A DNA stretch of 31,838 bases from an uncultured Caldimicrobium sp. (lineage in GTDB: Bacteria; Desulfobacterota; Thermodesulfobacteria; Thermodesulfobacteriales; Thermodesulfobacteriaceae). Below are positions 7,883-22,534 of this stretch, piece by piece (within the stretch, counting starts at the first letter, position 1; each line of letters opens with the position of its first letter). A model generated the notes under the pieces. It saw only the letters and a list, made by a program, of their open reading frames with translations, was not told the origin of the DNA and did not search any database. The DNA lies in contig CAZJUD010000075.1 in the NCBI GenBank assembly GCA_964549125.1, forward strand, positions 1-31,838, written 5' to 3'. The position numbers were made by a program, and so were the translations under genes.

Positions 7883-9034
7883 TTAACTCCTGTATGAGGC
7901 ATTAATTTTCACGTAATCCTCCGTTAGGTCGCAGGTTAAGACTTCGTAGCTAACTTTACCAAGTTTTAGATTAACCACAAGAGAAACCTCGCTTTTTTGC
8001 ATTTCCTCCCGAAGGACTTCTTCGTTTGTTTCAACTGAAAGCTCCCTAACCCAGGGTTTGCCGTTTAAGAAGATTTGGACTAACTTAGGGTCAAAGTCTA
8101 TCCCGGTTTTGCCAAGGGCTGAAAGGATTCGCCCCCAGTTTGGGTCTGCGCCGTAAAAGGCAGTTTTAACAAGGGGAGAGTTGGCAATAGACATGGCAAA
8201 AGCCCGTGCCTCCTCTTTGTTTCTTGCCCCTTTTATTTCCACCCGAATTACCTTCGTTGCCCCTTCTCCATCCTTAACAATAAGATAGGCAAGCTCTTTA
8301 GCAAGGGAAATTAGGTTTTCTGCAAAGTCGTTTCCGTCTTTGACCTCTTTAATTCCGCTTGCCAAAAAGTAGACGGTGTCGTTGGTGCTGGTATCGCCGT
8401 CAACGGTGATGCGGTTAAAGCTCAGATCAACTGCTTTTGAGAGAAGTTTTTTCATCTCTTCTTTTTTTAAGTATCCGTCTGTTAAGATGAAGGCAAGCAT
8501 AGTTGCCATGTTCGGGGCGATCATACCTGCTCCTTTGGCTATTCCAAGGAGCTTTATACCATCCTTTGTTGTCCTTTGAGCAATCTTTGGGAAGGTGTCA
8601 GTCGTCATGATAGCTTTAGCAAAGTCTTCAGCCCTATCAGGGGAAAGCCCAGCTACAAGCTCAGAAAGCTTAGGAATGATCTTTTCAAGGGGAAGCTGTT
8701 CTCCGATTACACCTGTGCTTGCCGGAAGTATCTCAAAGGGCTTAAGTTTTAGCAGGCTTGCAAGCTCTTTCAAAACCGCTTCAGCCCGCCTTATTCCCTC
8801 CTCTCCCGTTGCTGCGTTTGCTAACCCGCTGTTTGCAACTATGGCTCGATGAAAGGGTTCTTTAAGGTTTGTCTTTCCGATAAGCACCGGAGCAGCCTTT
8901 AGGGTATTTTTAGTAAATACTCCCCAGGCTGTTCCTTTTCTTTTACATAAGATTAATCCAAGGTCAAGCTTCCCCTCCTTTCTTATCCCACAGGAAACGG
9001 CAGAGAACAAAAAACCCTCTGGCGCACTAACCAT
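7883..9034 (-). CDS. argJ: Ornithine acetyltransferase / N-acetylglutamate synthase ArgJ
   Basis: [37 protein letters not shown] (autoproteolytic Thr), [29 protein letters not shown]. Confidence 0.97.
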
Positions 9035-9049
9035 ACGTTAACCTCCAGT

Positions 9050-9805
9050 TTAGTTGTTCTTTAACAAAATAAGTGCTGCTGAGATGAGTAAGAAGATGTT
9101 TACAAGATAATAAAAGGCTTTGGTTGAAAGTTTTAAATAAAGTCTCTGTCCAAGGTATAAACCGATAAGAACAATAGGTAGATTGAGAAGGAAGGAAGAA
9201 AACGTTTCTTTAGTAATATTTCCTTGAAAGGCATGATTGATGATAGCAAAAAGGGCAGTCATCATAAAGATAACCTGAAGGTTTACTTTAAAAAGGTCCT
9301 TTTTCAGTTTAAGAAGAGAAAAGTAGATTACAATGGGTGGACCTGGTGTGTAGAGTATCCCTCCAAGGAAGCCTACGATAAAGGCAACAGCCAAGGATTT
9401 TCCGCTTTTAAAAACCCTTGGGTCAATTTGCGAAAGATAGGTTGTTTCTTTTCCTAAGAAGTGCTCTAAGACTTCCCAGATAAAGTAAGAAAGTATAGCT
9501 ATGAAAAGAAGGATCCTTAAAGTTAGCTCTGAGACGGTTTTAAAACCATAAACACCTATGATAACTCCAACCAGTATAGCCACAAAGAACCGAATAGGAA
9601 TGTTTGATACTTTCTTTTCTTTCATCAGCAAAAATGTGGCAAGATTTACCGCAAAGGATAAAAGAGAAAGAAGGGGGACAGAGAACTTTACGCTTTTTAC
9701 CAAAGCTAAGAGGGGAAGAGCAGTTGTCGCAAAGGCAAAGCCAACGAGTCCATGGATTAAAGCAGATAAAAAAAGGACAATCCCTACTAAAATGTCATCT
9801 TTCAT
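9050..9805 (-). CDS. Sulfite exporter TauE/SafE family membrane protein
   Basis: 251 aa, about 8 hydrophobic segments, two-fold internal repeat (HGLVGFAF / GFLGGILYTPGPP). Confidence 0.8.
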   Translation of the reverse strand: MKDDILVGIVLFLSALIHGLVGFAFATTALPLLALVKSVKFSVPLLSLLSFAVNLATFLLMKEKKVSNIPIRFFVAILVGVIIGVYGFKTVSELTLRILLFIAILSYFIWEVLEHFLGKETTYLSQIDPRVFKSGKSLAVAFIVGFLGGILYTPGPPIVIYFSLLKLKKDLFKVNLQVIFMMTALFAIINHAFQGNITKETFSSFLLNLPIVLIGLYLGQRLYLKLSTKAFYYLVNIFLLISAALILLKNN

Positions 9806-9819
9806 AGTTTAAGTAGTTT

Positions 9820-10815
9820 TTAGGATAAACTGCCAAATATAGACTTATGCGCCTTGTAGGCTGAAAGGATTTCACCCATAGTGAAGAAGGCGTGAAAAGG
9901 AACCCCTTCTGCCTCGATAGCAGACCTACCGCCTTCCTCTCTATCAACTAAAGCCAAAATTTTAACTACCTGGACCTCAGCTTCTCTTAAAGCTGAGAGG
10001 GCTTTTAGCACCGACCCCCCAGTTGTTACCACATCCTCAACGAGAACAACCCTCATTCCCGGCTTAACGGCTCCTTCAATCTGTTTTTGCGTTCCGTATT
10101 TTTTGGGCTCCTTTCTAACAAGCAACCCCTCAAGCTTAACCCCTTCTTTTATGGCTGAGGCAAGGACAGCGCAAACGATAGGATCTGCTCCAATGCTCAT
10201 GCCTGCAACTCCATCTACAAAGGTAAAACGCACCTCCTCCCAAAAGAGGTCTCCAATAAGCTGAAAGGATGGAGAATAGAGGGTAACTTTCCTACAATCA
10301 AGGTAGTAGGGACTTTCTTTCCCGCTGCTTAAGATAAAAGGTTTGTCAGGACTGTAAAGAAAGGCTCTACTTAAAAGATACTTCATAAGTTCGCTTTTTA
10401 AAGATTGAACAGCAAGGTATTTTACCGTTTGGAACATAGGATAAGCCTCTCCAAGAAATTCGTAGATCTCCCTTTTGGCTACTTCTGGGTCAGGAGAATT
10501 GTAGTAAATGATGTTCTTTAGATGAGTAAAGCTCTTAGGGTCAATCTCCACAAACTTAACCGCAAAACCCTTCCCCTCCTCTACCCTTACAACTTCACCT
10601 TTGATGAAGACTACGATGTTGCTATCCCTTTCAAGAAAAAAGGCAATCTCAACGGTTTCCCGTAAATAGGGGAAATTAGTAGGTGTTTGGATATAAGCTC
10701 CACCTAAGGATAGGTCTTTTAGCTCACCAAAGTGATTGCCTTTAAGGCATTTAAAGGCAAGCTGTTTTTGAAAAGGAATTCGCAGAAACCGTCTTTTTTC
10801 TATCATTGTTTCCAA
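9820..10815 (-). CDS. pyrE: PilZ domain-orotate phosphoribosyltransferase fusion
   Basis: N-terminal RRFLR (RxxxR) and DLSLGG (DxSxxG). C-terminal LSSGKESPYYLDCR, RKEPKKYG, VVLVEDVVTTGGS (PRPP motif), VDREEGG. Likely start is ATG 10806; the track uses TTG 10815. Confidence 0.9.
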   Translation of the reverse strand: METMIEKRRFLRIPFQKQLAFKCLKGNHFGELKDLSLGGAYIQTPTNFPYLRETVEIAFFLERDSNIVVFIKGEVVRVEEGKGFAVKFVEIDPKSFTHLKNIIYYNSPDPEVAKREIYEFLGEAYPMFQTVKYLAVQSLKSELMKYLLSRAFLYSPDKPFILSSGKESPYYLDCRKVTLYSPSFQLIGDLFWEEVRFTFVDGVAGMSIGADPIVCAVLASAIKEGVKLEGLLVRKEPKKYGTQKQIEGAVKPGMRVVLVEDVVTTGGSVLKALSALREAEVQVVKILALVDREEGGRSAIEAEGVPFHAFFTMGEILSAYKAHKSIFGSLS

Positions 10816-10818
10816 ATT

Positions 10819-11682
10819 CTACTCTAAGGCTTTAAGATTGTAAAGATATCTCTGCATAAAGACTAAGGTTCCCTTAACCCTTTCTAAAAGGTTTGATGCG
10901 CTCTTTAGCTCAGTCTTTGCCTGCTCTAAATCTCTTTCTAAGCTTGAGAGGCTTTTCTCTAAGACCGGCAGAGCCTCTTCAAATCTTTCTCGGCTAAGAC
11001 TAAAGAAAAATCTATCCCAAAGAGTAAGAACCATCATCAGAGTTTGGGGAAGGGCTTGATAAGGGACAGGGATTATCCCTTCTCTTTCAAGGTCAAAAAA
11101 GATGCGAAGCTTAAGATAGCTATACAAACCATCAGGGACGACCATAAGGGCAAAGCCTACAGACCGCTCATCCTTGAGATAGCTTATTATCTCCTTTGCT
11201 CGATCCTTGGCTCGCCGGACGATTTCCCGTTCATCCTCAGGAGTTAGTTCAGACTTTGCTAAAATCTCTGGTGATGAGAGCTTAGAATCTATGGGGACAA
11301 ACTTTTCTCCCTTTAACCGCAGGGCAAACTCAACAACACCTGAAGATAGCTTAACATTACGAACAATGGTCCCTGGCGGAAAGAGTGAAAGAAGCTCCTC
11401 AACTGCCCGTTCTCCAACCTGACCTGAACGCCTGCCAAAAAGCACTCCTGAGATCTTCTTTACCTCCTCTGCAATGCCTTTCCCAAGCTCCTCCGCCGTG
11501 TAGAGCTTTACTAAGTCTTTTTTTATCTCCTGAAGGTCCTTTAGTCTTTCTTCAAGCTTTATACTCACCTGATTAAAGGATTTGTCTATTCTTCCTTCCA
11601 ATAGGCTTTTAATTTTTAGATAAAGATAGAGTAAGATTATAAAATTAATGATCAGAAGACTAACAATTAGGATATCCTTCAT
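10819..11682 (-). CDS. rmuC: DNA recombination protein RmuC family
   Basis: N-terminal TM and coiled coil, G..GE..VEELL, VPIDSK nuclease motif, FALMVVP, C-terminal coiled coil. Short for the family. Confidence 0.75.
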   Translation of the reverse strand: MKDILIVSLLIINFIILLYLYLKIKSLLEGRIDKSFNQVSIKLEERLKDLQEIKKDLVKLYTAEELGKGIAEEVKKISGVLFGRRSGQVGERAVEELLSLFPPGTIVRNVKLSSGVVEFALRLKGEKFVPIDSKLSSPEILAKSELTPEDEREIVRRAKDRAKEIISYLKDERSVGFALMVVPDGLYSYLKLRIFFDLEREGIIPVPYQALPQTLMMVLTLWDRFFFSLSRERFEEALPVLEKSLSSLERDLEQAKTELKSASNLLERVKGTLVFMQRYLYNLKALE

Positions 11683-12077
11683 TTATTAAATGACAAAATT
11701 TTTAGGGCCATATCAACCACAGATAAACCAATTATTGGACAGCCTAACTTGTTTTCTGGGATACCTTCAAGCTCAGCTATGATGTCTTCCTTTGAGATTT
11801 CCTCAAGGATACGTCTTAGGTCTTTTCCCTTGAGCTTCTCAGTTAAGACACTCAAAAATGCTACAGCAGGAACGCACCCTTGCAGTTTAAACTTTACATC
11901 CTCTACGATAAAATGTCTTAGTTTAAAGTAGACCTTAAGTAAGCAAGGAGAAGGGGGAGAGTCCACGCTACATTGGGGATTGGAAATTTCCACAATGGGA
12001 TAGGCATCGGGTATTTCGCCTACATTTTTGGCTGATAAGAATTCTTTAATCAGTCTTTTGCTATAGTAACTATTCAA
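11679..12077 (-). CDS. Divergent IscU/NifU-N scaffold paralog
   Basis: Aligns by eye to the adjacent IscU (KNVGEIPDA, NPQC, VEDVKFKLQGC, ISKEDIIAELEGIPENKLGC). TTG start. Confidence 0.8.
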   Translation of the reverse strand: MNSYYSKRLIKEFLSAKNVGEIPDAYPIVEISNPQCSVDSPPSPCLLKVYFKLRHFIVEDVKFKLQGCVPAVAFLSVLTEKLKGKDLRRILEEISKEDIIAELEGIPENKLGCPIIGLSVVDMALKILSFNK

Positions 12078-12086
12078 TTTTAAGCT

Positions 12087-12464
12087 CTATTTCTTTTGTT
12101 CTTTCTTGCTTTGATAATCTTCAATAGCCTTTTTCAAGGCGTCAAGCCCAAGCACAGAACAATGGACTTTCTGAGGAGGAAGACCACCAAGCTCTTCTAC
12201 AATATCCTCCTTTTTAATCTTTAAAGCTTCTTCTATGGTTTTGCCTTTTACCATCTCTGTAAGAATGCTTGAGACGGCTATCGCTGCTGCACAGCCAAAG
12301 GTCTTAAATTTTATATCTTCTATCCTATCATCTTTAACCTTGATGTAAAGATACATCATGTCTCCACAAACAGGATTTCCTTCCACACCCACCCCATCGG
12401 CATCGGGGATTTCTCCTACATTCCTTGGGTTCATGAAATGTTCAACTACCTTTGCACTGTACAT
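12087..12464 (-). CDS. iscU: Fe-S cluster assembly scaffold IscU/NifU-N
   Basis: YSAKVVEHFMNPRNVG, GNPVCGD, FKTFGCAAAIA, LPPQKVHCS; all canonical ligands present. Confidence 0.95.
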   Translation of the reverse strand: MYSAKVVEHFMNPRNVGEIPDADGVGVEGNPVCGDMMYLYIKVKDDRIEDIKFKTFGCAAAIAVSSILTEMVKGKTIEEALKIKKEDIVEELGGLPPQKVHCSVLGLDALKKAIEDYQSKKEQKK

Positions 12465-12495
12465 AGGTTCCCCCCTTTTAGTTGGTAAAGGGATC

Positions 12496-13704
12496 TTAGT
12501 GGTGAGGGCAAGTGGCTTTTTCCCATTTTTCCATATCCTTCCATCCTTCTTTAAAAGGAGAAAGCTCTCTTAACCTTTCTACAACCTCAGGCATGGTGTT
12601 TAATACATAATCTATGTCCTCTTCTTGAGTGTCTTTACTGAGCACAAAGAGGATTGACCCCTGTATAAGATGGGCAGGATAACCCATGGAAGACAAAACT
12701 GGCGAGGCTTTAAGTGCTTTAGAACTGCAAGTTGAGCCACTTGAAGTGTAGATTCCCTTAAAGGCTAACATGAGAAGCATGGCTTCCCCTTCAACGAACT
12801 CCACGATGAAGCTTGCATGACCAGGTAGTCGTTTTTCTGGATGCCCTGTTAGATGTAGATTGGGTATCCTTTCCAAAAGTCCCTTTATCAATCTATCTCT
12901 TAGTGCCTGCATCTTTGGCACCATCGTTGGTAGGTTTTGACGAAGCAGCCTTGCTGCTATACCCATTCCTACAATGGCAGGCACGTTTTCCGTTCCTCCT
13001 CTACGACCTCCCTCTTGAATTCCACCATAGATAATGGGTTGAACCCTGACCCCCTTTCTTATGTATAGTGCTCCAGCTCCTTTTGGACCATAGAACAGAT
13101 GAGCAGAAAGAGATAGGGCATCCACTCCTAAGTCGTCCACATCAACCTTCATCTGAGGGATTGCTGCCACTGCATCAGTATGCACCAAAGCACCAACCCT
13201 TTTGGCTAACCTTACCACTTCTTTAACGGGTTGTATTGTCCCAACCTCTGGATTAGCTAACTGAACAGAAACTAACACCGTATCCTCTCGCAAAGCTCGC
13301 TCTAAGAAGTTTAGGTCTATCACTCCATACCTGTCCACAGGAAGAAAGGTAACCTCAAAACCTTCTCTCTCAAGATGCCTTGCTGGATTAGTTATGGAAT
13401 GATGCTCTACTGTAGAAACGATGACATGGTTTCCTTTCTTTTTGTTAGCCTTGGCTAAGCCCACTATAGCCATATTGTTTGATTCGGTGCCTCCGGAAGT
13501 GAAGATTATTTCTTGGGGTTTAGCCTTGATGAGTTCTGCTACCACCACTCTTGCCTCTTCAACAGCCTCCCTTGCCCTTTGACCAAGGTCGTAAGGACTA
13601 AGGGCATTGCCAAAAATTTCCCTAAAATAGGGTAGCATACCTTCTAAAACTTCTTCTGCAGGCTTGGTAGTGGCAAAGTTGTCTAAATATACAGTTCTGT
13701 TCAT
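12496..13704 (-). CDS. iscS: IscS/NifS-family protein lacking the PLP Schiff-base lysine
   Basis: YLDNFATT, FTSGGTES, VEHHS, HTDAVAA, SAHLFYGPKG (Leu at the Lys position), GGTENV, SSGSTCSS (Cys326 retained). Confidence 0.9.
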   Translation of the reverse strand: MNRTVYLDNFATTKPAEEVLEGMLPYFREIFGNALSPYDLGQRAREAVEEARVVVAELIKAKPQEIIFTSGGTESNNMAIVGLAKANKKKGNHVIVSTVEHHSITNPARHLEREGFEVTFLPVDRYGVIDLNFLERALREDTVLVSVQLANPEVGTIQPVKEVVRLAKRVGALVHTDAVAAIPQMKVDVDDLGVDALSLSAHLFYGPKGAGALYIRKGVRVQPIIYGGIQEGGRRGGTENVPAIVGMGIAARLLRQNLPTMVPKMQALRDRLIKGLLERIPNLHLTGHPEKRLPGHASFIVEFVEGEAMLLMLAFKGIYTSSGSTCSSKALKASPVLSSMGYPAHLIQGSILFVLSKDTQEEDIDYVLNTMPEVVERLRELSPFKEGWKDMEKWEKATCPHH

Positions 13705-13952
13705 TTCTTCCTCCTTATATAAAACCTGTAGGTCTCTCCATCCTCATAGACGCCAAGAAATTCATGTCCAAAGACTTCACACCATCTTGGCACGTCCTCC
13801 AAGGCTCTATCGTAATCTGTGATCAGTTCAAGCACTTGCCCAACTTCAATTTTTTTTATGCTTTCGTTCAACTCTAAAAGATGAACAGGACACATAAGGT
13901 AAACCACATCAACGCTAAGGTCAGCATTTAGCGGTCTATCCAAAATGTTCAT
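13701..13952 (-). CDS. tusA: Sulfurtransferase TusA/SirA family
   Basis: 83 aa; MCPVH (CPxP-like), GQVLELITD, DVPRWC..FGHEFL, YRFYIRR. ATGA overlap with iscS. Confidence 0.85.
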   Translation of the reverse strand: MNILDRPLNADLSVDVVYLMCPVHLLELNESIKKIEVGQVLELITDYDRALEDVPRWCEVFGHEFLGVYEDGETYRFYIRRKK

Positions 13953-14063
13953 TTTTTATTTCACTACCTAAGGTTATCATCTAAAGTTATCTTATAAATA
14001 ATTCATGAAAGAAAAAAAGTCAATAGTATGAAAGAATAAATGTTTACTTAGTAAGTTAATTTT

Positions 14064-14525
14064 TTATAAAGAAAAGACTGCTTTGACTTTAAATTTTTTC
14101 TTTGCTGGGAAGGCATAGAATTTCAAACCGTAGGCGTTGCTTAGGTTTTCGAGGTAGGGGCGTAGGTCCTTAGGGCTTGGAAGGACGAGGGTGAACCAAA
14201 AATTTAGAGAATGCTCTCTTAGGTAGGCGTGAGTTACCTCTGGGAGGTCTGCTATTTCTTGGGCTAAGTAGAGTTTAGATTCAGGGATTGAGGTTGCGCA
14301 AAGACAGGTAAAGTGTTTGAGCTTATGGGAGTCAGGACTTGCCCCAAGGTGTCTAATTATGCCTTCCTCTTTTAGTTTTTTTAAAAAGGATAAGACCTCA
14401 TCTTCGGTTAGCCCAACTTTTTCAGCAAGAACCTTGAAGGGTTCAGGATGTAGGGGAAAATCCTCTTGAATAAGGTTTAAAAGTTCTCTGTAGGGCTCCT
14501 TAAGGTCTGATATTGATAAGCTCAT
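14064..14525 (-). CDS. ahbA: Siroheme decarboxylase subunit AhbA (Lrp/AsnC-like fold)
   Basis: IQEDFPLHPEPF, GIIRHLGA, PEVTHAYLREH, NFWFT; typical of the AhbA/NirD-L family. Confidence 0.8.
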   Translation of the reverse strand: MSLSISDLKEPYRELLNLIQEDFPLHPEPFKVLAEKVGLTEDEVLSFLKKLKEEGIIRHLGASPDSHKLKHFTCLCATSIPESKLYLAQEIADLPEVTHAYLREHSLNFWFTLVLPSPKDLRPYLENLSNAYGLKFYAFPAKKKFKVKAVFSL

Positions 14526-14614
14526 AGAAACATAATTTAAGCTCTTCTTTGCAATTTAGCAACCTGTGTTAAGTTTATTGAAAGATAAACAAGGTCTATT
14601 TTGGAGGGTAAAAG

Positions 14615-15073
14615 ATGTCAACGGGAGCAATCTCATTAGAGATAAAGGAGATTGAAAGGCTTTTACCCCATAGATTTCCTTTTCTTTTGGTTGACAAGGT
14701 GCTTGAGATAGACGTTGAGAGGGAGTACATTAAGGCTGTGAAAAACGTGACGGTTAATGAGCCCTTTTTTCAGGGGCATTTTCCTGGGTATCCAATCATG
14801 CCTGGAGTTTTAATCCTTGAAGCGATGGCTCAAACAGGGGCAATCTTCCTTAAGTATGCCTATCCAGAGTTTAAGGATAAGCTCTTTGTGCTTGCTGGTT
14901 TTGACAAGGTAAGGTTCAAGGCTCCGGTTTATCCTGGAGACCAGCTCGTCATCTTTGCCGAGAAGTTTCATCGTAAGGGAAAGCTTATTTGGACTACCGT
15001 TACCGCAACGGTAAATGATAAGGTAGTTGCTCAAGCTGAAATAACGGCAGCAATGGTAGACTGGCAAGAATAG
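14615..15073 (+). CDS. fabZ: 3-hydroxyacyl-ACP dehydratase
   Basis: LPHRFPFLLVD, NEPFFQGHFP, MPGVLILEAMAQ, PVYPGD. Confidence 0.97.
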   Translation: MSTGAISLEIKEIERLLPHRFPFLLVDKVLEIDVEREYIKAVKNVTVNEPFFQGHFPGYPIMPGVLILEAMAQTGAIFLKYAYPEFKDKLFVLAGFDKVRFKAPVYPGDQLVIFAEKFHRKGKLIWTTVTATVNDKVVAQAEITAAMVDWQE

Positions 15074-20890: not shown

Positions 20891-22534
20891 ATGCCCCTTG
20901 GAAAACCCTTCTATCCCTTTCCAATCCTTCTTATCCTCTTGATTTTTCTCTTAGTCTCTTCTCAAACCTTTTCCTTTACTTTGAAGTCTTTTAAGCAAAA
21001 CGGCAAAAAAAAAGAGGTTCCTTTGCTTACTACTGGAAAGCCTGAGGGCTGTCTTTTCTGCCACGACGAGAAGGTTGAGGAGAAGGTGCATGCCCGGGAG
21101 ATGCTTGGTTGTTCAAGCTGTCATCTTGGAAACCCTTTAACAGTAGATTACCGTGCGGCTCACAAAGGCGTGGTTAAGAATCCTTCAGACTTAAGGATTG
21201 TCCACAAGACCTGCGGTCAGGCAAACTGCCACCCACAAGACCTAAACAAGGTGAAAAATAGCCTTATGGCTACAAACCATGGCATCCTTGTTAGGCTTCT
21301 AAAGGTCTTTGGAGAAGAGGCAATCCTTAAGGAACATCCAAACATCAGCGTAGAAGACTTATACAGCCTTAGGACCTCATCCCTTGCCCTGGATTACTTC
21401 AAGAAGCTCTGCGGCTCCTGCCACCTTTTTCTGGAAAAGGGAAGGCTTCCCGATTTTTTGGCAGAAAAGGGAGGTGGATGCTCAGCCTGCCATCTTGTTG
21501 GTAATAAAGAAGATTTAAAAAACCGCAAGCTTCATCCTCGTCTTACAGCAAAGATCCCTCTTGAGAAGTGTGTTCTCTGCCACAACCGTAGTGGAAGGAT
21601 CGGCTTTACCTATCAGGGGCTCTATGAGGATGAGCAGAGCGGGGAGGGTGAGGTGGTATACATCGACGGAAGAAAGCTACGAAAGATCAAGCCTGATGTT
21701 CATTATAAGGCAGGGCTTCACTGCATTGATTGCCATACAAGGGATGAGGTCATGGGGAACGGAACCTTCTATCGTAAGATTGAGGATGCCCTGCAGGTTG
21801 ATTGCGAAACCTGTCACTTAAGAAAAGGCTTAACTAAGGCTGGAACAAGGCTTGCAAACATCGTAGAAAGGGATGGGAAGGTTTTTCAGAAGGGAAAGGT
21901 TGATGAAAGGTGGCATTTAGTTAAGGCTCCTTCAAAGGACTGTCAGGATAGGTATCACAGGAGGCTATCCTGCTCAGCCTGCCATGCTAAGTATGTTCCT
22001 CAATGCTACGGCTGTCATGTAAGGTATGATCCGAGGGAGAGACACCTTGACAAGATCCTTGCAAGAGAAACAAAGGGGCTTTGGGAGGAGCATGAGTCCT
22101 ATCGCCGGATTGATGAGCCAACTCTTGCAGTAAAAAAAGACAAGATTGTTGTGGTTACTCCAGGTTGACAGGATTTTGTGTCTATCCTCTCGGAGGAGGG
22201 GAAGTTAGCTCGCTACTTTGAAAGCATTACCTTTGCTCAGATTGAGCCCCATTCAACGCAAAGAAAGGGCCGATCTTGTAAAGATTGCCATCAAAACCCT
22301 AAGGCAATCGGACTTGGCTACCGAGAGGGATTGGATAGGCTATCCCGGGTTGGGGACCGTGAGGGAAGGGCTTTGGTTAAGTTTAACCGTGAAGGACTAA
22401 GACCCTTCACCAAGGAGGAGTTAGAGAGAGTCCTAAAGGTTGGGCTTTGTTTGTCCTGCCATGAAGAAAGGGATAGAATTTTTAAGAGCTGGAGGAGCGA
22501 TTTAAAATGTCCAAGGTTAAAGACCTTACCTTGA
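20891..22534 (+). CDS. Multiheme c-type cytochrome (11 CxxCH plus 1 CX4CH), probable selenoprotein with in-frame TGA at 22166-22168
   Basis: Track ORFs 20891-22168 and 22178-22534 are in one frame, joined by GGT-TGA-CAG-GAT-TTT-GTG (TPG-U-QDFV). N-terminal signal/anchor, 9 CxxCH plus CGQANCH before the TGA and 2 CxxCH after it. SECIS-like hairpin downstream. Confidence 0.8.
22182..22208 (+). promoter_or_regulatory. Putative bacterial SECIS element
   Basis: TCCTCTC-GGAG-GAGGGGA (22185-22202): 7-bp stem with one G-U, G-initiated tetraloop starting 23 nt after the TGA. Extendable by CTA/TAG pairing (22182-22184 with 22206-22208). Confidence 0.65.

Follow-up and report, generated by a model that had tools for sequence, protein, structure and literature searches.

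A TusA-like gene conserved beside a lysine-less IscS and its IscU: a candidate cysteine-independent Fe–S assembly module in Caldimicrobium

A four-gene locus with a lysine-less IscS

We analysed a 31,838-nt stretch of DNA from an uncultured Caldimicrobium sp. (contig CAZJUD010000075.1 of assembly GCA_964549125.1; hereafter the window), in which four linked minus-strand genes encode a TusA-like small sulfur-carrier protein, an IscS/NifS-like protein without the pyridoxal 5′-phosphate (PLP) lysine (IscS*), a canonical IscU scaffold and a divergent IscU paralogue (IscU′) (Table 1). An original prediction, made from the sequence alone, had singled out these genes as a candidate for cysteine-independent iron–sulfur (Fe–S) assembly or sulfur relay, and the overlap and gaps that it gave were reproduced exactly: the tusA stop and the iscS* start share an ATGA overlap (13701–13704), followed by gaps of 31 nt between iscS* and iscU and 9 nt between iscU and iscU′. 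Pfam scans of all other open reading frames (ORFs) of at least 90 amino acids (aa) agree with its further statement that no iscR, iscA, hscAB or fdx accompanies them, with iscR/Rrf2, iscA, hscA/B and fdx all lacking in the window, and the gene set is not that of a canonical iron–sulfur cluster (ISC) operon (iscRSUA-hscBA-fdx).

Table 1. Positions of the module genes and of other features of the window
Feature	Position	Strand	Details
TusA-like small sulfur-carrier protein	13701..13952	(-)	83 aa; PF01206
IscS/NifS-like protein without PLP lysine (IscS*)	12496..13704	(-)	402 aa; Aminotran_5
Canonical IscU scaffold	12087..12464	(-)	125 aa; NifU_clost TIGR03419
IscU′, divergent IscU paralogue	11679..12077	(-)	132 aa, TTG start; NifU_N 58 bits
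AsnC-type/siroheme-decarboxylase-like (AhbA-like) gene	14064..14525	(-)	NirDL-like helix-turn-helix (HTH) + AsnC_trans_reg2 domains
Short RmuC-like gene	10819..11682	(-)	287 aa; weak PF02646 match, E 5e-10
PilZ–phosphoribosyltransferase fusion	9820..10815	(-)	N-terminal PilZ domain (E 4e-14), PyrE-like phosphoribosyltransferase domain
TauE/SafE-family membrane protein	9050..9805	(-)	sulfite/sulfonate exporter type
ORF, first of a consecutive pair	20891..22168	(+)	425 aa; no Pfam match at E ≤ 1e-5
ORF, second of the pair	22178..22534	(+)	118 aa; no Pfam match at E ≤ 1e-5

IscS* has the aminotransferase class V fold of the desulfurases (PF00266, E 3.7e-80, residues 5–365) and scores under every NCBIfam desulfurase cutoff, the best match being NifS (482.8 bits, cutoff 530.75), with IscS at 363.8 bits (cutoff 643.2) and PRK14012 at 377.4 bits (cutoff 548). 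Alignment to E. coli IscS places Leu203 at the Schiff-base lysine K206, in the motif SAH-L203, and shows changes at other PLP- or substrate-holding residues (N155→P, Q183→A and R354→L in E. coli numbering), with H104, D180, H205 and T243 retained. The loop cysteine (C328 in E. coli, Cys326 here) is also retained, within SSGSTCSS, and does not vary across the clade. At the lysine position the 120 best homologues have Q, L, E, R or I in every case, and all keep the loop cysteine; they comprise Caldimicrobium proteins at 71–99% identity and proteins of Thermosulfuriphilus, Nitrospirota/Thermodesulfovibrionia and Archaeoglobaceae at 57–62%. These identities mark the host as a Caldimicrobium-like representative of the Thermodesulfobacteriota. 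Because none of these 120 has the lysine, its loss is neither a sequencing artefact nor a private mutation. An exact-sequence look-up found no record identical to the window protein. In a wider comparison, with the 150 nearest 50%-identity cluster representatives from a library of 1.8 billion proteins, the lysine is kept in 129 and lost in 21, and its loss is nearly always paired with Q183→A and R354→L/V. Lysine-containing relatives reached through adjacent IscU genes keep N-D-Q-H-R at the PLP sites in 18 of 18 loci.

Having lost the PLP lysine as well as residues for binding PLP and substrate, IscS* is predicted not to be a desulfurase. The original prediction had held that it probably cannot mobilise sulfur from cysteine, and the changes seen here, the loss of the lysine throughout its homologues and the analogy to Archaeoglobus fulgidus IscS2 (PMC7585200, PMC8918507) all favour this, so that IscS* is very probably unable to desulfurate cysteine.

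A second cysteine may also matter. In the window clade the C-terminal tail has the conserved form SP[FY]xxGW...C, and of 117 full-length homologues 116 have its cysteine (Cys399 here), which the IscS proteins of the Aquificae and of A. fulgidus lack. This tail cysteine may serve as a second relay or ligand cysteine. At the IscS* C-terminus (12496–12540) we also note that the tail cysteine co-occurs with the TusA type described next.

The first gene of the module belongs to the TusA family (PF01206, E 5e-19, 68.4 bits against a 28.6-bit cutoff) and represents a distinct subfamily, because it misses the NCBIfam equivalog cutoffs for TusA (43.5 vs 78), YedF (37.4 vs 79) and YeeD (24.2 vs 147.5). 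Across 77 loci this subfamily has the invariant signature M-C21-P-x-H24-L-L ... T-D46-Y47-D48 ... D53-x-P-x-W57-C58. Cys21 and Pro22 are invariant, and the second proline of the CPxP motif is an invariant His24 (CPxH), both among 23 aligned members and in the 77-locus alignment. Two conserved aspartates, Asp45 and Asp51, lie near the TusA cysteine (Shi et al. 2010); in E. coli TusA, Asp45 is described as ‘absolutely conserved’ and Asp51 has been proposed as a general base (PMC2854127). Asp53, the equivalent of Asp51, is invariant in the subfamily. Tyr47 stands at the position of Asp45, in an invariant TDYD that replaces ADDP, and judging from this alignment a neighbouring aspartate of TDYD may substitute for Asp45. 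A single-sequence AlphaFold2 model has the element order of the TusA fold (E-H-E-H-E-E), at a weak mean confidence (predicted local distance difference test, pLDDT, 58). The naming of the gene as tusA thus stands as regards the family and the acceptor cysteine, and needs amendment as regards the subtype, which is an atypical CPxH form and no canonical CPxP TusA.

The third gene encodes a canonical IscU. The protein exceeds the NifU_clost cutoff (TIGR03419, 197.3 bits against 187.9), keeps the three cluster cysteines and the equivalents of Asp39 and His105 (CGD, GC and HC motifs), and has as its best PDB match the A. fulgidus IscU of an IscS–IscU complex (4eb5_C, 184 bits).

That complex is among the closest known counterparts of the module. 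A. fulgidus IscS2, in which the lysine is replaced by Asp, has no desulfurase activity, and one of its cysteines ligates the [2Fe-2S] cluster of IscU in the crystallised (IscS–IscU)2 complex (PMC7585200, PMC8918507, PMC13066941). For A. fulgidus IscS–IscU, sulfide has been put forward as the origin of the sulfur, and [2Fe-2S] assembly on IscS–IscU without desulfurase activity is stated there to be an open question (PMC8918507). The two systems share a type I IscS fold (PDB 4eb5, 4eb7, 4hvk and 4r5f), a replaced PLP lysine, a retained loop cysteine, an IscU of NifU_clost type immediately downstream, a tusA that precedes the iscS gene in the genome and a host that is an anaerobic sulfur-metabolising thermophile. 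They differ in that A. fulgidus IscS2 belongs to a clade with the motif SSND, as against SAHL/Q/E here (374 bits between 4eb5 and IscS*), in that its TusA is a canonical CPEP form separated from iscS2 by dsrE, and in that A. fulgidus has neither the C-terminal tail cysteine nor an IscU′. The open papers on IscS2 contain no mention of its tusA and dsrE neighbours.

The best PDB matches of IscS* itself are a 406-aa ‘cysteine desulfurase’ series of Aquifex type (9wep, 9wer, 9wew, 9wf8, 9wfb, 9wfe and 9wfy; 439–443 bits). Entry 9wfy, deposited with an IscU as chain D, reads TAHL, with His-Leu in place of His-Lys, and among the matches listed 95 of 120 natural Aquificaceae homologues also read TAHL, from which we conclude that the native Aquifex-type IscS is lysine-less. 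Entry 9wep reads SAHK and differs at about eight PLP-site positions; from its sequence it appears to be an engineered variant with the lysine and PLP site restored. Use of 9wep and the Aquificae as a natural lysine-containing control was ruled out for the same reason, and Aquificae loci count below as lysine-less exceptions. Aquifex-type IscS differs from the window clade in having no tail cysteine and, in Aquifex and Hydrogenobacter, no adjacent tusA or iscU. We found no publication on the 9wep–9wfy series.

Taken with the sequence features of IscS* and IscU, we consider it highly likely that the four genes include a lysine-less IscS–IscU Fe–S module. Such a pairing is a known kind, and the part of the original prediction that presented cysteine-independent IscS–IscU assembly as undescribed does not survive: the A. 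fulgidus complex has been characterised, with sulfide proposed as its sulfur source, and a lysine-less Aquifex-type complex is in the PDB. Lysine-less IscS–IscU appears, moreover, to be under active study.

Linkage of tusA to lysine-less IscS

Apparently new, judged by the accessible papers, is the finding that the link between lysine-less IscS–IscU and TusA, alone or together with DsrE, is specific and conserved, the much-studied A. fulgidus locus included. Searching one genome per species with the aligned window IscS* clade as the query returned 80 loci. Three end within 140 nt of the iscS* start and are uninformative; in all of the remaining 77, the ORF immediately upstream, on the same strand, is TusA-like. 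iscU follows iscS* directly in nearly all of the 80, and the tusA-linked loci come from Caldimicrobium, Nitrospirota/Thermodesulfovibrionia and Archaeoglobaceae. Directly upstream of tusA, 57 loci have an Rrf2/IscR-like regulator with a three-cysteine motif. The same arrangement, Rrf2-TusA-Aminotran_5-NifU_N, is found in precomputed Pfam annotations of a metagenome scaffold, at the locus of an IscS* that NCBI and UniRef name Thermosulfuriphilus ammonigenes. We infer from the IscR-like regulator of these relatives that the operon belongs to Fe–S homeostasis.

We then compared lysine-less with lysine-containing IscS in a metagenome sample anchored on IscU rather than on IscS, comprising 80 loci in which the residue at the Lys206 position was read by alignment of the adjacent IscS. 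Informative loci were those with a tusA and those with no less than 900 nt of sequence on each side. By this measure, a same-strand tusA is present no more than 1.6 kb away at 29 of 33 lysine-less and 0 of 13 lysine-containing loci (Fisher p = 2e-8, uncorrected for phylogeny). A sensitive hidden Markov model search, run on 15 of the 18 lysine-containing loci, found no TusA anywhere in the surrounding ±6 kb, and likewise none at the lysine-less exceptions. In six lysine-containing loci an Rrf2 gene directly precedes iscS, which argues that TusA is an added element in an Fe–S operon. Together with the genome scan, these counts uphold the suggestion that tusA co-occurs specifically with lysine-less IscS, subject to the exceptions taken up in the next section.

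Lysine-less IscS proteins fall into three main clades, each with its own tusA arrangement. The archaeal-type SSND clade has a CPxP tusA upstream, often together with dsrE; the AGNQ-type clade has these two genes after iscU, with either one first; and the window clade, SAH[Q/L/E], which is sister to the Aquificae, has the CPxH TusA upstream. The gene orders seen are tusA-iscS*-iscU, tusA-dsrE-iscS*-iscU, iscS*-iscU-tusA-dsrE and iscS*-iscU-dsrE-tusA. Because the linkage persists across these gene orders and across TusA subtypes, it points to functional coupling and not to inherited synteny alone.

Named archaea show the SSND arrangement directly. The orders are tusA(CPEP)-dsrE-iscS2-iscU in A. 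fulgidus, tusA-iscS-iscU in Ferroglobus placidus and tusA-dsrE-iscS-iscU in a Hadarchaeum genome, and in all three the IscS reads SSND at the lysine motif. As a separate observation on the A. fulgidus locus (our locus L086, 5466–6192 and 6325–7849), iscS2-iscU is followed by two small unannotated ORFs and a ferredoxin gene, and the opposite strand carries a gene for a second TusA (CPYP) coupled with one of NIR_SIR sulfite/nitrite-reductase-like type, so that two tusA genes flank the Fe–S module.

A description of tusA(-dsrE)-iscS*-iscU linkage was not found in the open literature; an earlier mention may exist in Garcia et al. 2022 or in the TusA review of Tanabe et al. 2019, both outside our coverage.

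Sulfur supply and its direction

We propose that the operon is the Caldimicrobium version of a widely conserved arrangement, (rrf2/iscR)-tusA-iscS*-iscU, dedicated to cysteine-independent Fe–S assembly with TusA as the donor, and we assign this full statement a probability of roughly 0.5. The module would be a minimal ISC- or MIS-type Fe–S assembly machine whose sulfur does not come from cysteine. By extension from the A. fulgidus homologue, IscS* would dimerise with IscU, and Cys326 would be the fourth ligand of the nascent [2Fe-2S] cluster, the point at which sulfur is handed over, or both. The TusA-like protein would replace the lost sulfur-mobilising step by carrying sulfane sulfur, as a persulfide or thiosulfonate, on Cys21 and passing it to Cys326 or Cys399 of IscS*, or directly to IscU. 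Cys21 could be loaded from a non-cysteine source such as polysulfide, thiosulfate or a sulfide-derived persulfide and, in the archaeal versions, loading would run through the adjacent DsrE sulfurtransferase. Taken by itself, the role of TusA as sulfur donor of the module is a tentative assignment, for which we would offer slightly less than even odds. The flow from environmental sulfane sulfur through TusA to Cys326 of IscS* and on to IscU is one that we infer. The more general pathway, a dedicated donor (with DsrE in archaea) that feeds persulfide from TusA-SSH to an IscS* cysteine and then to IscU across Archaeoglobi, Hadarchaeia, Nitrospirota and Thermodesulfobacteriota, is possible, although we regard it as doubtful.

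Several parts of this proposal have precedents. DsrE and TusA are established persulfide or thiosulfonate carriers (PMC11094781); the DsrE–TusA pair of the relays in sulfur oxidisers is also found in the archaeal versions of this module, and the position of DsrE between tusA and iscS* in those versions fits a sulfur relay. The E. coli IscS–TusA relay (PDB 3lvj) likewise joins a TusA-fold carrier with an acceptor cysteine and an Asp51-type base to the loop cysteine of IscS, with TusA Cys19 about 4 Å from IscS Cys328 (PMC2854127). It differs from the module in that sulfur moves from cysteine on IscS to TusA, whose gene lies apart from isc, whereas here tusA is in the operon with an IscS* predicted to be incompetent for persulfide formation, the proposed flow is reversed and the motifs are CPxH/TDYD as against CPxP/ADDP.

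The minimal iron–sulfur (MIS) system (MisS–MisU, Garcia et al. 2022) also resembles the module. It is reported to be able to use sulfide (PMC13066941) and to consist of a two-gene core of IscS-like and IscU-like proteins in anaerobes, with no IscA, HscAB or Fdx. That core pair is present in the window, where the extra elements are the conserved TusA-like gene and IscU′. MIS is described without additional components, whereas a TusA-like protein, often an IscR-like regulator and, in archaea, DsrE are conserved here. The MisS of Methanosarcina acetivorans is a normal PLP enzyme (PMC7585200).

A number of observations weigh against TusA as the donor, and the first group concerns the protein itself. 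The CPxH and TDYD motifs of the window TusA, in place of CPxP and ADDP, could mean that its chemistry differs from that of canonical TusA. The IscS residues that contact TusA in E. coli (W45, E49, D52, R55, R220 and R237) are not distinctly conserved in the TusA-linked clades; position 49 shows a weak trend, with acidic residues prevailing in the window and AGNQ clades, a mixture in SSND and Lys in the Aquificae. In E. coli, TusA and IscU cannot occupy IscS simultaneously (PMC2854127). Free sulfide, which is abundant in these organisms, may moreover be enough to supply the sulfur, an idea put forward for A. fulgidus (PMC8918507).

These points lend themselves to another explanation, in which sulfur comes from free sulfide and the TusA-like protein is an effector or partner of IscS*–IscU: a modulator like frataxin or IscX that sits on the face of IscS used by them, a gatekeeper in competition with IscU, or an Fe-binding or Fe-delivery protein. 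In its metal-binding form this explanation would make use of the invariant set Cys21, His24, Asp46, Asp48 and Cys58. It gains from the E. coli TusA footprint, which clashes with CyaY and IscX and by which TusA competes with IscU (PMC2854127), from the invariant His of CPxH and the exchange of ADDP for TDYD, which hint at altered chemistry, and from Aquifex and Hydrogenobacter, which manage without a linked TusA. The other lysine-less clades, on the other hand, use a CPxP TusA, often with DsrE, which is the signature of a sulfur relay and not of a metal chaperone, and the acceptor cysteine and Asp51 equivalent are invariant in the TusA-like protein. We know of no TusA that binds metal. On balance we regard an effector role, its metal-binding form included, as unlikely.

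The second group of contrary observations concerns the genomic pattern. There is no tusA at four of the 33 lysine-less loci from metagenomes. The lysine-less iscS of Aquifex and Hydrogenobacter comes after a ParA/Mrp-like gene and has neither tusA nor iscU next to it. In Persephonella (our locus L083, 5001–8858) the order is iscS*-HTH-iscU-thiI/NFACT-R-tusA(CPIP)-x-nifU_C, and its TusA looks tied to tRNA thiolation. The loci compared in the metagenome sample are also not independent events, because lysine-less sequences form a few large clades. A smaller neighbour-joining tree places all lysine-less sequences on one side; a larger set, analysed by neighbour joining and by Fitch parsimony, gives about five state changes and the three main lysine-less clades. 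We do not claim independent origins of the lysine loss, because the trees carry no support values.

The Persephonella cluster, by linking TusA to an enzyme of tRNA-thiolation type, also gives some weight to the conventional direction of transfer, in which Cys326 of IscS* would be persulfidated non-enzymatically, from an IscU-bound cluster or from sulfide, and would pass sulfur to TusA for 2-thiouridine and 4-thiouridine (s2U/s4U) or molybdenum cofactor (Moco) synthesis, the module acting as a sulfide-fed hub. Transfer from IscS to TusA is the sole direction established by experiment (PMC2854127). No thiolation enzyme is linked to the module in the window clade or in the A. fulgidus-type clade, however, and the operon is headed by an Fe–S regulator of IscR type. 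If TusA were one acceptor among many, there would be no reason for a link that is limited to lysine-less IscS (0 of 13 lysine-containing loci), and DsrE normally stands upstream of TusA in relays (PMC11094781). We therefore find the conventional direction improbable for this module.

A further qualification concerns the packing of this genome. The iscU′ stop overlaps the start of the RmuC-like gene by a second ATGA, and the co-directional genes beyond that one are spaced only 3 to 15 nt apart, so that tight spacing is not special to the four genes: it runs on into neighbouring genes. A consensus scan of 9000–14700 found no promoter or terminator that would delimit a four-gene unit. Both facts would suit a reading without functional meaning, in which IscS* is a decaying pseudo-enzyme and tusA a chance neighbour in a compact genome, packed like the unrelated RmuC-like, PilZ–phosphoribosyltransferase, TauE and ArgJ genes. 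What goes beyond chance is the tusA-iscS*-iscU order kept in other genomes, not the tight spacing. Hundreds of genomes carry IscS* at 57–99% identity, with many positions that never vary, the gene order is shared by three phyla from two domains, and homologues form crystallised IscS–IscU complexes. The conservation of IscS* and of gene order rules out a pseudogene beside a chance neighbour, a reading to which we give next to no weight.

TusA donation to IscS*–IscU, our preferred reading, offers a concrete and testable candidate for the missing sulfur-delivery step, for which only free sulfide has been suggested so far. As the A. fulgidus and Aquifex-type IscS–IscU have already been crystallised, the neighbouring TusA and DsrE could easily be added to their assays. 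If the proposal is correct, the textbook direction from IscS to TusA would be reversed, the ‘minimal’ MIS would gain accessory factors, and ‘inactive’ IscS proteins would be sulfur-relay and scaffold modules instead of dead enzymes. The CPxH TusA and the IscS* tail cysteine of the window clade would then form a specialised relay. The proposal would also bear on Fe–S biogenesis before cysteine became the sulfur currency, and the pathway might represent a pre-cysteine state of the ISC/MIS lineage. Were TusA a modulator instead, it would still be a new class of partner for pseudo-desulfurases.

IscU′ and genes around the module

The fourth gene of the module is confined to the host lineage: of 11 Caldimicrobium loci, 6 have an IscU′ orthologue (E 1e-36 to 1e-41) after iscU and, among the 80 clade loci, no other lineage has one. 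IscU′ scores 73.5 bits against NifU_clost, under the 187.9-bit cutoff, and retains the three canonical cysteines (C36, C68 and C113). At its Asp39 equivalent, an invariant seven-residue insert, DSPPSPC, adds a fourth cysteine, C45, and its His105 equivalent is Gly in the window and Gly, Glu or Asn among orthologues. By these residues it is an IscU-fold paralogue and not a canonical scaffold, and its all-cysteine site, from which the labilising Asp is missing, suggests that a cluster would be held more stably. IscU′ could be a carrier, a second scaffold or, possibly, a heterodimer partner of IscU. In the proposed mechanism this lineage-specific four-cysteine paralogue would hold or pass on the finished cluster more stably, a step in which we have low confidence.

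The AhbA-like gene lies 111 nt upstream of tusA. It scores 126 bits with the AhbA model (cutoff 140) and stays under both siroheme decarboxylase cutoffs. In six Caldimicrobium loci it occupies the slot upstream of tusA that in 57 other loci holds the Rrf2/IscR-like gene. Its product might have taken over the regulator's role and not be a haem enzyme; the gene is a possible lineage-specific neighbour or regulator, and its membership of the module is uncertain.

The rest of the window consists of housekeeping genes by Pfam, for example argJ, dapB, lpxA/I/B, fabZ, greA and purH, and includes a consecutive pair of plus-strand ORFs with no Pfam match (Table 1). The short RmuC-like gene downstream of the module was detected at none of the 80 related loci. 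The TauE/SafE-family gene, three genes downstream of the module, is likewise not conserved as a neighbour in related loci. Between these two lies a gene in which a PilZ domain is fused to a PyrE-like phosphoribosyltransferase domain, a combination that suggests control of a nucleotide-synthesis enzyme by cyclic di-GMP.

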